Notes: a model not told the origin generated them from the sequence alone. Shown: positions 5,786 to 13,810, counted from the first letter of the stretch. The stretch: DNA of 64,000 nt from Paramecium tetraurelia (GCA_000165425.1 CT868042.1:62001-126000), one strand, 5' to 3'. Translations and numbers: made by a program.

Positions 5786-7020
5786 TCACTATTTTTACTT
5801 GAACCAGGAAGGGATTAATTTATGGGCAATTTCAGGTTGGATCTGCAATTCCACTTTAATTGATAATAAAGATCATAATTACCTTTTTGAAAATCAAAAA
5901 AGTTAGGTAATTACACATTTGGGATTGAGAAACCTTCTTATCTAATCTCATCGAAATATGGATGAAGCAAAGCCTCCAAAGGTTTCAATCTTTCTTTTGG
6001 AGAATATACAAGCAATTTACTAACAAAATCAACAAATAAAGGTTCTGGCTTATATTTAGCAAACACCTTCAATATTTTTGTATATTACTTTAGCCCATGG
6101 ATGACACTTTATCTAAGGGAATTTAAATTCTTAATGTTAAGGATTCATTTTTTTAATTTATTCAATTGTAGGAGTACCCAATATTTTGATTATTTCAACA
6201 AGTTGATCAGTAGCCGACTCTCCAGGAAAGAGTGGTTCACCAGTAAGCATCTCAACGATAACACATCCTGTAGTTTTAATTAATGAATACCTATCGACCA
6301 GATATCAATAGATGTTGTATATTCAGTTGCTCCAAATATCAATTCAGGAGCTCTATAATATCTGGAACAAATATAAGCCACATTTGGTTCTCCAGGTACT
6401 AATCTTTTTGCTGACCCAAAATCACAAATTTTTAAGACATGAGTATTTGGATTAACCAATATATTCTGAGGTTTAATATCACGATGGCAAATCCCAATTC
6501 CTAATTTCTTAATAATCAGAGTACCTTCTAAATAAGCAAATGCTCTTAGCATTTAATAACTGTAGATTTTGAGTAGAACATTTGGAAATGGGGTCTTGCT
6601 CTTTTTGTAGTTTCGAATGAGTTTACTGAGGGTTTCAGGAATGTAGTCCATTACTAGATTCAGAAAAATGTCATCTGGCTATTTTCTTAATATTTTATTA
6701 CATTTTTGGAATTGTCTCCTTAGGTGAAAAATGCTTGTCTTAATTTTACAATGCAAGGATGATTTAATTCCTATATAATAAGATGTTCTCTGTTTTTATA
6801 GCGTTTATCCTAAAATACTTTCTTGATAGCAACTTTTTCATTTGTTTTTGTATCCAATGCCTATTTAAGAGATCAATTAACATAGTACTAGATAAACCAT
6901 ACCGAAGGTGCCATTGCCGACGACTTAGAGTATTTGAAATTGATTCTATATGGAATTTGATTTTTGAATGAAATTATCTTGAGGTCCTTCATCTGCTTAA
7001 GTTACTAATCTCTATTTCAT
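5786..7020 (-). CDS. GSK3: Glycogen synthase kinase 3 / shaggy-like kinase
   Basis: VVGNGTFG; 'DKRYKNRE'; '[59 protein letters not shown]'; '[22 protein letters not shown]'. Multiple short introns. Confidence 0.95.
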
Positions 7021-7045
7021 TTTAATTATTAATCATATAATATAA

Positions 7046-10000
7046 TCAGATTATCATTCCAGGTATTCCATCAAATGAAGATAATGATGCTTCACTATGC
7101 GATATAAATGATCTAAAAGAGTTATTCGCACTTAAATTGAGATTACTTTAATTGTTCTAAGGGATCTGTTGATTAAATATTACATCTGCAGGATATACAA
7201 CCATCTTGGTCGACTATTTGATAATAGAACTTGGCGTAGATGCATCCTTTTTTGGTTTGATTATAGATCTTTTCTGCAATTATTGAAGAAGATTTGAAGC
7301 CATTTTAGAAACATCTCTTTTGGGTGTAAAATAAAGTTCATTTTCATGGTAAATAGGTAAATCCAATTTCTTTAAATTTATGTTGTGATCACTTTCGAAG
7401 GTTAAACATTGATTAGATTTATTGGGATTCGAGGGAATCTTCCTAGTCAGATTTTCCTGGCTTTGTTCCTCATCTTCATCTACTCTTGAGAATATGTCAA
7501 TATCTCTTATATGATAAATAAATATATTACTATACTTCTTGTCCAAAGGAAGAATTGTCAGAAAAATCCTCCTGTTCTAGTTTAGATCTTCTTATTAATT
7601 GTTTGGTATAATTTTACCAAGCTTTAAAAATAACTAAAATTGAAAGATAATCGCTGGCAATGCTAAAATTGCTATTGAATTCGACATAAGTTGCAATAAA
7701 TGACCTTTTTTGTAATTTGTCCCTTCTAAAATAAAACAGTCTCATTTGCATCTCTTTATTGAACTTTTTAATTATCTTAATTGAATCTTCAGATCCTTAC
7801 TTAAAAACTTACTATTTAAATGTTCTCCTGAATATTTCATAAATTAAAGAGTTGAATTAGATATAGCCTTAATCGTCAGTTCTAATTTTTAAGTATCCAG
7901 CAAAACGTGCTGCATCCCAAATGTTATCCTTTACATGAGTGAATGGTTAACCAATTTCTAACAGAAACTTGCAAATCTATAAGTAGTGTATTGCTTTTCC
8001 GTGTCTTTGGTATGAGTACTTACACCACACAGTTTTTATTTTGTCAATGGATTCAATGTATACTTAAAGAATTGAGTTTTCCGATTAAAAGAATTTCTCG
8101 AATTGTTCAATTAATCCCAAGACAAACAAATTTAACAGGACATAGTTTGATATAAACACAAAGGAAATAAAGTAAATTTATGCAAATTAAGACCCACAAT
8201 AACGTGGATCATCATAACAGTAAATATTATGGATCATTGTGTCTGTCATTATACTTCTAAAATTATCACAAGATCCACACTTTAATAAGGTCAATAGAGA
8301 ACTTGTAAAAGTTGAAAAATTAATCTAAGAATCTATAATGACTCCCTTATCTATATGTCCAAATAATTAGCATCCCAACAAAGCATAAGATAATGTTGTT
8401 ACAATCAAAATAAATAATATCTTTCCCAGGAATGGAAAAGAGAATATCATTACTCTGATCAATCTTTATAGATCATCAAATCCTTTAAATAATATTAGAA
8501 TTCTAAGATTCCTTAAAGCAAACAATAATCTTATAATCTGATAATTCTCAGTGAACATTGTAGATGTAAATTGAATCCTAAATAGATCATATTTTTAGGT
8601 AGCAATCAATTCAAATAAAGAGATTATAACTATGAATGAATAGAATTGTCTCCATTAATCATCTATAAATCTCTTAAATCCATAATCTAATAGTTACACT
8701 ATTACCCAAAAGGTAAATAGGATCGAAATTATCTCGTGGTATTTGTTTAATTCCAATGCAATTTCAATCTCCATATCTTAATAAAATGACATTTAAATTA
8801 TTGTATCTGGTATTAATATAAGAAAGGATAAATATTAGAAGTATGAATTGCTATTCAACTTCTGAGCTATTCTTCTAATGATATTTCTGGGAGGCTATGA
8901 AAATGAAGGTGAATCCCTAAGAATCTTTTGTGAGACCTATATGAATTCTTATTGATAGACTGTTAAATCATCATATTCTATTTTCTATTAACTTGCTTTT
9001 AAATTTAAGAACAATAAACCGGTAAACAAACTTAAGAAAAACATTGAACCTATAAAGCAGAAAAGAGTTAAATAGATATATGTAGGCAATTGATTTGCAA
9101 AAGGAGACGGGCCTTAATAAGAAGGTCTTGAATTCTCAGCCACTTGTAAGATCTCTCCCCAACCATCAAATGTTGATATCACAAACAATGTAGGTAAAGC
9201 AACTGTAATATTATCAAAATTATGTTAATATGTTATCCATCTTCTGCCTTCATCTTCACATTATTATTTATTTATATCAAACTACATCAAATCATCACAG
9301 AATCCAAATTTATTTTAATAAAGTATCATACCGTACACTGCAAACATTGTCCATATTATTAATAGTGTTATTAATACATTACTCATATTATATAAAGCAG
9401 CCACTAAAGAATTGTATAATTTAACTATTGGCGTAAATGAATACAATAACTTAAATGGTCTCAAATATCTGAGGTACAAAAATAAGTGTAATATTCTACT
9501 TTCAGTATTTATCAATTATAGATAATAACATACTAAATACATGATGTCTATGATTTACCAAATGTGCTATATAACAAATTAAAATTACTTGTATATAAGA
9601 TCCTTTCTCATGAAATAATCCTAGTGCTATTATTAACATCATAGTCTACACTGTTATTAATAGATTAGTTATCAGAATCAAGGAGTCTACAAATACCATA
9701 TATTCCACATGATAGGTTTATATTGCAATTAAGACAATAAACCCTATATTCAATCCTAATCTGCTCCAATAAAAGAGTTCTGATCGTATGGTTTTCACAC
9801 AGAAGATTCTCTATTAATTGAATTTATCAAAAAAAAATAACGATTCTTTACACTTAATTCCTAAGTAGATCTTTCTCCTCTTAGTTTTTATCTGTTTCAC
9901 TAGTTATTCTATAAAGATATATCAATATCTTACAAATGGATTCTAAAAGATAACCATATTGAGTATCCTTCTAAACAGATTGGTTTTAAGACAAAACTTT

Positions 10001-13000
10001 AAGTGATTTGGTCGCAGAACCCTTCTCTTTTTCTTTTTAATTCTCCTCAGCTTCTGAATCTGAATCTTGTTTATCAGAAGTTTCACCTTTAAACATAATG
10101 TCTTAATCTTTCTTTATCTCTATTAAATATTCTCCAAAACCATCCAATAATATGGCCATCACTAAACCATAAGTAATATAATTTAAGAAGTGAATCATAG
10201 AAAATGAGTAGATAAATGCAAATATTTAATTAACTTTTGTTCCTAATGCCAATACGCCATACCAGTCATCATTTGTCATAATATTAAACACAGTCATCCA
10301 AGACTTTAAAGGATCTTTGTAAGAATGCAAATGTCCAAGCAATTGGGTTTCATCAAAGCTACTTGCATAAACAGCCATACCCAATAAACCATATATAAGA
10401 ATCATTAGAAACATTAAAAATGTCAAATAGATATATTACTTAAATGTTCTTTTTGCTATCAAACCTATGAGCACAGCCATTCTAATATATTTTAAACATC
10501 TATGAAATAGGAGAATCTTGGTGCCCCTTAATAATCTAGCAATTATGTCTTACTAGTTTAGAATCTATCTAAATGACATTTCATAAAAGTTAATTAAAAT
10601 AATGATTGATTCTAAGATTACTTATTCTTTTTAAACTAGTTTTGCTAGAATGATAATAAATATATTGATTACATGTTTAATAAGAGATTAACTTTAATGC
10701 AAATTCAATTGAAACTATTATTGTTGTAAAATCTTCAATAACTGTAAGAAATTGATTAGATATGATGCCTATCAAACTTAAACATAAAAAGTTAACTAAA
10801 ATTACACAATCCACAAAGAAATTTGTAAACTTATTAGTAATTATCATAAATGTTATTTTCCTAATAATTTTGATTTTCCCTCTAATTCCTATTAACCAAA
10901 TCAGGTAGTCAATGTGATTTAAAGAATGTTTAATAATATTTTTGTGTTCATAATTATTAATAACACTAGATATGGAACAATTTTTGGATTCAATAATTCC
11001 AGTCTGCATTTCTGGCATTCTTATTTATAAATATTTCTCCTCATAATTTTTTATCTCATCTGCAATTCTAATTTGTATTTTCTTGTTGATCAACTCTGAT
11101 ACTGCTTTGTAATTATGATAGAATCCATAAATTTTAACATAAATTTCTTTCTCCTTATGTAAAATAAATGTACTGGTACTCTTCTTGTTTTAGGCTGAAA
11201 TAATTATATTATTCGGATGGATGGACGCAGTTTATTACTACGATGTAGCCCTAGATTAATGATGATGAATGTCCATCAGTGTAATACCACTTGAAGCAAA
11301 TGATGCTATTTTCTCTTTTAATCTTCTGCTCTTAAGTATTGGAAATTATTTAAGTTCATTTAAATTTTTCTATTTATTCTTACTTTTTGTTTGGTATCTA
11401 AATTACAAGATTCTATTTTGAACCTTCTAACTCACTTCTTATTTACATTAAATAACATCTGATGCACTATTTGAGACGTATACTTCATTTTTTGCATTTG
11501 CCCAATATCTTGTAAATTCATTATGAGTAAGACACTACATGTTGATATCAGGTTTCTCACTTAAATTGTCATACAAATCCTAAAGCAAATTCTAATATTT
11601 TTTAATATCCACAAATTTAGGCAGCAACAATGTCTTTAATGAGAATTACTACAAGAACTAAAAATTGTTTTCATATTTAGAATAGTGTTTTCCTGATAGT
11701 ATACGAGGTTATTCGGACTGAATAGATGTGAATGAACAAAAACTTCTACTTAATAATTAATGATCGCCTTTCAAATACATTTTGTACTATAAAATAGGAT
11801 GATACAAACCATTTTATTTTAGAATTTATAAATTTAATTTCTCCTCTTTTTGATGTTAATCATCTTCTTCGGATTGATTTAATTTTTGATTAGTTTATTA
11901 ACTATAATGAATTTTTAGGACAGCAATAACTAAATTAAATCCAAAGAAACCACCAAAAAAGATTATCAATAAATAATACACCCAAATGTAGGTACCATAA
12001 CTTTTAAGGGTGAAATACATGACCCATGTCCAATCATCCATCGTAATTGTTCTTAAGACCTATGCATATGATGAAAACACATTATTAAAAGATGTTGGGA
12101 TATTTGGTCCTTACGAAACATATTAACAAACCAAATCATCAGGACAAGAGGTGATTCTACACGAAATCCATGGTTAATCATCAAGAGAATCATACTACTT
12201 AGGCAGACATCTATAGTTTATTAGACCGTGAAATAGACTTTGCCCAAGGGTTGCAAAAAACAACCCAAAAATAATCACAATTATTAAAGCTTCGACAAGG
12301 TATTTAAACGATTTTCCAAGAGCTTATAACATAATTTTCAAACCTAATTAAACTAATTTATACCTGGCACAAAATCTCCTAAATACAAAAGCAATGTAAT
12401 TAACCTCAAAGGTGAAAAATCTACAACATCTATAATTGGGATTAAAGTAGTAATTATTTGCAAGACTGTTAAAATTAAATCAAACCAGTTTTTAACAACT
12501 CTGAAATATGCATGTTTGTGTCCTATTATTCCTTTGGAGAGTATTCGAAATACTTAATCAGCGATGTATACGTATATTACCACTAGTTTCAATAATATTG
12601 CATTACTTATTTCATAAATAATAAACTTATCATCTTCTATGGATAAGATTTTAGATACAAAAATTACGAGATTCACCAATATTATAATTGACATAAATAA
12701 TTTGTAAAAGATGGTTCTTTGCATGTAATTTAAAATGATTAGTATTCCATATATAACTTTGATTATGAATTTTCTAAGTTTCAAAAAACTATAGTTATCT
12801 TGATAAATCTATTTAAATAACAAATTACATTCAGTTCGTATTTCAACCTTTAATAACCATAAATTTTATAGAGATCAACTAAATAAATTTATTCAGTCTT
12901 TAGTTTAGTTTTTTCATATCTCTTGTTCATTTTATAGAATTAATTATCACTATTATTAAAGGTCTTCTCAGTTCGACATTTCATTTTCTCTTAAGCAAAC

Positions 13001-13419
13001 TTGTATTTTTGTTTCTAAACCTTTTCATTTATTTATTAAACAATCTAAATTCACTACAATAATTACCTTATTAGTGGATTCCCTTTTGGGTTTTTCAGAT
13101 CTGGCTCCAAATGTATATTTGACAGATGAGATATCTTTTTTTGATAAATTATCATTGTCGAATCTCAAACCAAAAACACTTTCTTCATTTCTTAAAATTA
13201 TGTTTGTTTTAGTTTTTTTCTATTTTCTTACTTTTGGTGTACCAATTTCAAAAGCGTTGAAACTTTAACATTTTTATTGTTAATTCGAATTCATGTTTTC
13301 AAATTTATCATTGACTAGTCTATTCCTGAAATGAGCAATCTCTTAAATGGATGTTTAACTACGTAGCTTCATTGACTTTACTTTGAGAATGCTATAGGCT
13401 CCAAATCTTCATTATTCAT
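7046..13419 (-). CDS. Four-domain (4x6TM) voltage-gated Ca2+/cation channel alpha subunit
   Basis: Four repeats of transmembrane segments with pore loops TMDDW, TNDDW, TFDGW and SCDNF. S6 motifs 'GGFFGFNLVIAVL' and 'GSMFFLSLFTGLL'. S4-like 'LRYLRPFK' and 'IIRLLFALRNLRIL'. TGA at 7046. The frame can be followed upstream to ATG 13419 through short introns; an alternative start is 12930. Confidence 0.9.
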
Positions 13420-13534
13420 ATAATATAAAAAATGATAAATTATTAAGTTCTAAAATTATCATAATGTATTAGAAACCACACATTCATTATATTATTATAT
13501 TAATAATTATTGATATATATCTTATTTAGTCTTT

Positions 13535-13810
13535 TCAACAATCACATAAAGATGCCTTGTGGATAGAAAAAGTATCACTTTGATTATTTTAGTTCATATG
13601 ATTACCACTTGGATCATTATGTTTATTAACTTTAATGAAATAATAGTGATTTCCAAGATACAAAAATTTGCTGGAAGACAAATTATAATTTTATTTTTTC
13701 CTTGATGTATAATTCAAATCATGATTTGTGTTTATTTGCTTACAACTAAGTCTTATTTCTAAATTTATAGAATTTGCCCATATGTCATGCCACTTAATTG
13801 GAGTAGCCAT
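13535..13810 (-). CDS. Small hypothetical protein (91 aa)
   Basis: Uninterrupted code-6 frame from ATG GCT ACT CCA ATT AAG TGG (MATPIKWHDIWAN...) to TGA at 13535. No homology recognised. Confidence 0.3.

Follow-up and report, generated by a model that had tools for sequence, protein, structure and literature searches.

A 64,000-nucleotide stretch of the Paramecium tetraurelia genome (GCA_000165425.1, CT868042.1:62001-126000; called the window here, with positions counted from its first letter) carries on its minus strand, at 7046..13419, a gene for a four-domain cation channel (four times six transmembrane segments, 4x6TM). The gene has 10 exons, with the ATG at 13419 and the stop codon at 7048-7046, and encodes a single chain of 2054 amino acids (aa) in which aspartate occupies the selectivity site of all four pore loops. 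Judged by its sequence, the gene is a member of a Paramecium-expanded subfamily that has been published as ciliate subclade Ic. The best explanation of the data as a whole, which we consider fairly probable, is that this subclade Ic channel would serve as a Ca2+-selective entry pathway with an inert voltage sensor in domain I, regulation by calmodulin, and no fast inactivation of the Nav type.

Four aspartates at the selectivity site

The window is AT-rich (guanine plus cytosine content 0.24-0.37) and was translated with genetic code table 6, in which TAA and TAG are read as Gln. Long table-6 frames were found on the minus strand between 7.0 and 13.4 kb, and their translations were pieces of an ion channel that matched the Pfam family Ion_trans. 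A preliminary description of the window had placed four pore loops within these frames, and scripted mapping of the table-6 minus-strand translation agreed exactly with each position. The loops are TMDDW in domain I (12030..12044, minus strand; D425 at the selectivity site and D426 at the +1 position), TNDDW in domain II (10262..10276, minus strand; D1005 and D1006, respectively), TFDGW in domain III (9159..9173, minus strand; D1357 at the selectivity site), and SCDNF in domain IV (8259..8273, minus strand; D1657 at the selectivity site). Comparison of the exon translations with PF00520 showed that the four loops sit in the four Ion_trans repeats, domains I-IV, and they are therefore not chance motifs. 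Every repeat has a [T/S]-x-[D/E/K/A]-x-W loop at the selectivity site, and the loop of domain IV closes with Phe, not Trp. The residue at +1 is Asp in domains I and II, Gly in domain III (DIII), and Asn in domain IV (DIV).

The gene model was aligned by MAFFT with 89 of 112 homologues, 23 redundant fish Cav rows having been removed beforehand. The filter columns read EEEE in fish Cav1 and Cav2 (L- and N-type), EEDD in fish Cav3 (T-type), DEKA in rotifer para Nav, and NEEE in fungal Cch1, and so these columns represent the high-field-strength site. The window gene has D/D/D/D in the four columns, contributed by the first Asp of each loop. The E/E/E/E filter of Cav1, Cav2, and the Paramecium ciliary Cav is absent from it, and Lys is found at none of its four selectivity sites. 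Pairwise HMMER alignments to the chains of solved structures, made for each domain separately, were used as an independent check. The domain I loop tmddw was paired with lqdyw in domain I of eel Nav1.4 (Asp on Asp), the domain II loop tnddw with tqedw in domain II of Cav3.1 (Asp on Glu, and +1 Asp on +1 Asp), the domain III loop tfdgw with tfegw in domain III of Cav1.2 (Asp on Glu), and the domain IV loop scdnf with tgeaw in domain IV of Cav1.2 (Asp on Glu). The all-aspartate ring proposed in the preliminary description was thus borne out by the MAFFT controls and by all four HMMER pairings, neither of which placed another residue at the high-field site.

For the turret and pore of domain I (11880-12341, minus strand), the corresponding domain of animal Nav channels gave a better match, with an expectation value (E) of 5e-21, than that of Cav channels (about 1e-14). 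The domains other than domain I matched Cav best.

Identity with Paramt26 of ciliate subclade Ic

The window gene corresponds to GSPATT00035233001 / XP_001433501.1 (P0005), and this deposited protein showed a 100% match over the 678-aa DIII-DIV exon. Pozdnyakov et al. (2018, Sci Rep, PMC5824947) list XP_001433501.1 in their supplement under the name Paramt26, and the four S4 strings, the linker string DDLT, and the IQ string of the window gene are all identical to the Paramt26 row. The ohnolog in P. tetraurelia (P0270, XP_001450132.1, GSPATT00017106001), which is 89% identical to the window gene, is Paramt31 in the same work (PMC5824947). In the accessible part of that survey, ciliate subclade Ic was defined by a D/D/D/D filter, at least one Arg/Lys-poor S4, an IQ motif, and a pre-IQ that could not be identified (PMC5824947). 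The window gene has the D/D/D/D filter and, in domain I, an Arg/Lys-poor S4, and at 7640-7608 it carries the string of the IQ column, ILVIFKAWQNY. As far as the survey text at hand describes subclade Ic, the two agree in the filter, in the charge-poor S4 of domain I, in the polar linker between domains III and IV, and in the putative IQ motif, and nothing essential differs (PMC5824947). DDDD also appears among the calcium-like pores of non-animal channels in an excerpt of a 2018 review that cites earlier work (PMC6259924).

The novelty implied by the preliminary description therefore fails, as the protein was already Paramt26 and the D/D/D/D subclade Ic had been named in 2018 (PMC5824947). Because Paramt26 is listed with the same strings (PMC5824947) and DDDD pores are covered in PMC6259924, the finding is a rediscovery as far as the sequence is concerned. 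The present analysis adds to PMC5824947 the corrected model of 2054 aa, conservation counts over five aurelia species, the recognition of SCDNF as a derived loop of this orthogroup, and RNA evidence.

Conservation and phylogeny

The orthogroup of the window gene, assembled by cluster look-ups, consisted of ten proteins from five aurelia species. All four loops were identical to those of the window gene in eight of the ten, the ohnolog included. One exception was P0008 of P. primaurelia, in which DIII reads SQFNGLG (Asp replaced by Asn and Trp by Leu). The other was P0007 of P. sonneborni, with TN-NW in domain II (a residue and the Asp lost) and THDNF in DIV. Elsewhere these two proteins are 85-86% identical to the window gene, and their damaged loops may mark one duplicate that was relaxed after whole-genome duplication. 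The filter has thus been kept by the ohnolog and by further Paramecium species, and the orthologs are not EEEE.

The clade as a whole was counted over 49 Paramecium proteins (P0005-P0053). The filter was DDDD in 38 of them, NDDN in five, D-DD in two, DDD- in two, DDND in one, and DDRD in one, the two DDD- rows being models without domain IV. The +1 residues were D/D/G/D in 37 of the 49. Among the 47 proteins with a DIV loop, the first position of this loop was Ser in 40, and the last position was Trp in 29, Phe in 17, and Leu in one; the usual loop was SGDDW (24 proteins) or SGDDF (12 proteins). SCDNF of the window orthogroup can be taken as a derived yet conserved variant of SGDDW/SGDDF. The loss of Thr and Trp from domain IV that had been pointed out for this gene is real, with Ser and Phe in their places, but by the 47-protein count it is largely a trait of the clade and not specific to the gene.

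A FastTree tree was built from 1325 trimmed columns, leaving out P0005 (a duplicate of the model) and the partial sequences P0049, P0053, P0097, and P0102. The DDDD sequences, the window gene among them, formed a single clade of 42 tips with a support of 1.0, and all tips within it were Paramecium proteins. It was united with the NDDN group with a support of 1.0, the stem being long (0.91), and the sister group of DDDD plus NDDN was formed by ciliate EEEE channels, from Blepharisma, Tetrahymena, and Paramecium (support 0.999). The tree therefore upheld the earlier proposal of a ciliate subfamily apart from the EEEE channels, to which the ciliary Cav are assigned in print (PMC5824947).

The sister group with the N/D/D/N ring comprises the Paramecium proteins P0047, P0048, and P0050-P0052, and an N/D/D/N variant is mentioned in the part of the 2018 survey seen (PMC5824947).

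Among 149 aligned cluster representatives, the filter was EEEE in 66, -EEE in 21, --EE in nine, EDEE in seven, EEDD in six, and DEDD in four, with others making up the rest. No full-length DDDD channel from outside Paramecium was present among these 149 representatives, in which the clade itself was apparently represented only by the 336-aa fragment P0117, and the result is therefore weak evidence for a restriction to Paramecium. Partial matches with Asp in several loops were P0124, P0138, P0183, and P0236 in the representative search. A -DDD row (P0150) was set aside: it is a tick T-type fragment, and its pattern is probably an alignment artefact.

Expression

RNA from the gene was examined in oligo-dT RNA-seq data. 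Two runs gave 29 and 72 reads over 6900-13550, and in all reads the first mate lay on the plus strand, the orientation that a stranded library should give for a gene transcribed from the minus strand. Contigs from two other runs stopped exactly at 7505, and one loose end at 7531 equals the sequence of the next exon, which indicates that the 25-nucleotide (nt) intron between them is spliced. A third RNA contig began at 9589, which is also an exon edge. In the near-identical contigs of one run, 31 of 36 listed differences were at third codon positions (15 further rows are not in this count), as would be expected if a close paralog or allele were under purifying selection. The gene is thus expressed, in the form of low-level, spliced RNA from the expected strand.

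Predicted Ca2+ selectivity and regulation

By analogy with engineered pores, the channel is probably Ca2+-selective, because Asp also occupies +1 in domains I and II, like in the LDDWAD pore. NaChBac became Ca2+-selective as Asp residues were added, and LDDWAD gave a permeability ratio (PCa/PNa) of 133, according to the portion of PMC2229573 available. The motif of this engineered bacterial channel (CaChBac) is the T-x-D-D-W of domains I and II (PMC2229573, same portion). However, a CaChBac-type channel is a homotetramer in which all four loops are alike and a third Asp lies farther outward, whereas the window gene has the +1 Asp in two of its four loops. CavAb is another engineered Ca2+ channel with an LDDWAD pore. 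According to the section of PMC10120453 consulted, a +1 Asp "always" accompanies calcium selectivity, be the residue at the high-field site Glu or Asp. In the Cav3.1 DDDD double mutant, currents remained and gating was measurable, as the accessible text reports (bioRxiv 10.1101/626069).

In the working that we propose, the four ring carboxylates and the two outer carboxylates would bind divalent cations tightly, and the channel would by this means form a Ca2+-selective entry pathway. This pathway would be distinct from the EEEE ciliary channels. Gating would depend on the voltage sensors of domains II-IV or on some other stimulus, and sensor I would be inert. The C-terminal region after domain IV contains an IQ-type motif, ILVIFKAWQNY (7608..7640, minus strand), which is a presumed calmodulin-binding site and is the string of the Paramt26 IQ column. 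Because of this predicted motif, regulation by calmodulin is probable. The III-IV linker has DDLT (8961..8972, minus strand), as in the Paramt26 row, where Nav channels carry their inactivation particle; as this motif is polar and charged where Nav has a hydrophobic latch, fast inactivation of the Nav type would be absent. The Pfam records showed PF00520 only, with no GPHH or Ca_chan_IQ domain; the fish Cav rows carry PF16905 and PF08763.

Several observations weigh against such a pore. In the orthogroup, DIV has lost the +1 Asp (now Asn), the Gly (now Cys), and the Trp (now Phe). That pore Trp staples neighbouring loops together in bacterial Nav channels. The losses in DIV could loosen the filter. 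RNA depth was very low, with a mean below 3 in every bin. In our literature search the gene was named in no paper found, and no current was reported from subclade Ic. The survey text available to us calls subclade Ic "likely voltage-insensitive" and its filter "uncommon", and predicts no selectivity in that text (PMC5824947). Finally, replacement of EEEE by DDDD in Cav1.2 was reported to eliminate Ca2+ or Ba2+ currents (PMC2229573, portion available), and an Asp ring is therefore no guarantee of Ca2+ conduction in every scaffold.

Voltage sensors and comparison with other four-domain channels

The S4 of domain I, SPLRLITLLLYLGDFVP (12365..12415, minus strand), has one Arg only, and the string is identical to that in row Paramt26 of the PMC5824947 supplement. 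Five basic residues, all in every-third register, were found in the S4 of domain II, RLLRGTKILLFHRCLK (10490..10537, minus strand). The S4 of domain III, HLFLYLRYLRPFKLLYS (9438..9488, minus strand), has three basic residues and one His, and that of domain IV, IIRLLFALRNLRILILFKG (8481..8537, minus strand), has four basic residues. An Arg/Lys-rich S4 is thus not present in all four repeats. Because its S4 carries a single Arg, voltage sensor I is probably degenerate or inert. The sensors of domains II, III, and IV, with 5, 3, and 4 basic residues in every-third register, look usable, and we therefore regard the label "voltage-insensitive" as unproven.

The channel has the 4x6TM architecture and the C-terminal IQ-type motif in common with animal Cav1, Cav2, and Cav3 and with the EEEE ciliate channels, and its best match among solved structures was Cav1.2 (E 3e-59). 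The +1 Asp of domain II is also common to Cav and the window gene. In contrast to these Cav and ciliate channels, the window gene has DDDD instead of EEEE or EEDD, an extra +1 Asp in domain I, a degenerate S4 in domain I, and a long branch of its own in the tree.

The single Arg in the S4 of domain I, together with the description of subclade Ic as "likely voltage-insensitive" in the part of PMC5824947 seen, would also suit a voltage-insensitive, weakly selective leak channel, or a channel gated by a ligand or second messenger, of the NALCN or Cch1 kind. NALCN and fungal Cch1 are likewise four-domain channels with reduced charge in their voltage sensors. The Pfam scores point the same way: the ortholog (P0266) and the ohnolog (P0270) each have four Ion_trans stretches, but the total Ion_trans score of the ortholog was 329 bits against 673 bits for a Paramecium EEEE channel, and so the subfamily is strongly diverged. 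However, the S4 segments of domains II-IV keep their basic residues in register, and the six carboxylates of the filter region favour divalent selectivity. The NALCN ring contains Lys (EEKE/EKEE). The filter of the window gene has no Lys, unlike that of NALCN. The NALCN chains also matched far more weakly (E 1e-15) than Cav (E 1e-59), the matches to NALCN and Cch1 being much weaker in general, and both lie in distant clades of the tree, with NEEE as the filter of Cch1. We consider a leak channel of this kind unlikely.

Other explanations

A Ca2+-selective pore remains our preferred reading. A divalent channel of unusual preference, either permeable to Mg2+ or responsible for the somatic hyperpolarization-activated Ca2+ conductance that excludes Ba2+, Sr2+, Mg2+, and Mn2+, seems a doubtful candidate. 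The side chain of Asp is shorter than that of Glu and would give the ring another geometry, and such currents exist in Paramecium, with no gene named in the available excerpts of the reports (PMC2229130; PMC8208649). However, this evidence is purely circumstantial, and the gene is tied to neither current. The distinct Mg2+ selectivity that the preliminary description raised as a possibility is speculative. About 20 paralogs carry the same filter, and so no single gene is singled out. It is a speculative thought, to which we give little weight, that the Paramecium D/D/D/D channels, the window gene and its ohnolog included, underlie one of the classical Paramecium currents for which the texts consulted named no gene. 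The leading candidate would be the somatic hyperpolarization-activated Ca2+ conductance, which sets ciliary beat frequency and excludes the four ions named above. If this were true, that strict ion preference would be created by the shortness of the Asp side chains and by the derived SCDNF loop in domain IV.

The damaged filters of two orthogroup members (P0008 in DIII and P0007 in domain II), the low expression, and a DIV loop without Thr, Gly, and Trp could also be taken as signs that the gene is a duplicate from whole-genome duplication that no longer functions and is decaying. This is very improbable, as the reading frame is unbroken over all 10 exons, identity of the protein is 97% with the P. 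octaurelia ortholog and 89% with the ohnolog, and the loops are the same in eight of ten proteins. The differences to the near-identical transcript are mostly at third codon positions, and spliced RNA is present from the expected strand.

The preliminary description had called the filter "CatSper-like", and this holds for the ring analogy only. The likeness to CatSper1-4 is the all-Asp high-field ring, and CatSper1 also has Asp at +1, as given in the section of PMC10120453 consulted. Both CatSper and the window channel are presumed to be Ca2+-selective, but CatSper consists of four separate 6TM proteins with many auxiliary subunits, whereas the window gene encodes one chain. The resemblance is best regarded as convergent and not as kinship, because the CatSper matches were marginal and the clade was placed within the ciliate four-domain channels. 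A true CatSper relative, with four subunits fused into one chain, would explain Asp at the same site in all four CatSper subunits (PMC10120453, section consulted), but it is hardly credible, given that CatSper matched single domains only (E 7e-3 to 3e-6) while Cav and Nav matched domain for domain in order (E 1e-13 to 1e-59), and that the clade stands beside the ciliate EEEE four-domain channels in the tree (support 0.999).

Paramecium is the classical "swimming neuron", in which genes have been assigned only to the EEEE calcium channels of the cilia. Several other divalent currents are known electrophysiologically, and the all-Asp subfamily, being large, conserved, and expressed, is an obvious candidate set. 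The subfamily is also a natural experiment on how an Asp ring, as against a Glu ring, tunes selectivity in an asymmetric four-domain pore. As the sequence-level discovery dates from 2018, functional assignment is what would now matter.

Gene structure and neighbouring genes

The gene model was made by joining the table-6 frames over nine GT..AG introns of 20-28 nt each. It was 97.1% identical to the P. octaurelia ortholog (P0266) over 2046 aligned residues, and the gaps between them were limited to one residue and the shorter N-terminus of the ortholog.

All introns lie on the minus strand. The first, of 23 nt (13359..13381), directly follows the start codon and, like those of 22 nt (13045..13066), 20 nt (12809..12828), 20 nt (12344..12363), and 28 nt (10645..10672), was placed by the gene model. 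An in-frame intron of 24 nt (12583..12606) is only probable: its 8 residues are absent from the orthologs, and no reads cover it. Splicing of the 25-nt intron at 9909..9933 restores the match to the orthologs, a stretch that the deposited model reads differently. The intron of 22 nt at 9567..9588 comes from the gene model, and one RNA contig begins next to it at 9589. The last, of 25 nt (7506..7530, GTA...AAG), was missed by the deposited model, and its splicing is supported by RNA contig ends. A 19-nt GT..AG candidate at 11805-11787 was dropped, since it would break the frame and an RNA contig reads through it.

Two introns (9933-9909 and 7530-7506) are handled wrongly in the deposited P. tetraurelia model (P0005, 1924 aa). 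This model lacks about 130 C-terminal residues, which are conserved in four sibling species, and this truncation arose because the 25-nt intron at 7530-7506 was missed. In the public model of the ohnolog (P0270), 7 residues are missing inside the S4 of domain IV, and a false intron call is probably behind this gap.

In P. primaurelia and P. sonneborni, a second D/D/D/D-type gene seems to be adjacent at the ohnologous locus (P0117/P0274 beside P0006/P0268), as judged from accession numbers one or two apart on the same contigs. Because of these apparently adjacent paralogs in two species, the window was searched for a tandem paralog; none was found there, and the window contains a single channel gene. 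Directly downstream of the channel gene, on the same strand, lies a protein kinase gene (6145-6837, minus strand, continuing to about 5626) with a match to Pkinase (E 3e-28), and the region of its activation loop resembles what we take to be the GSK3/CMGC type.

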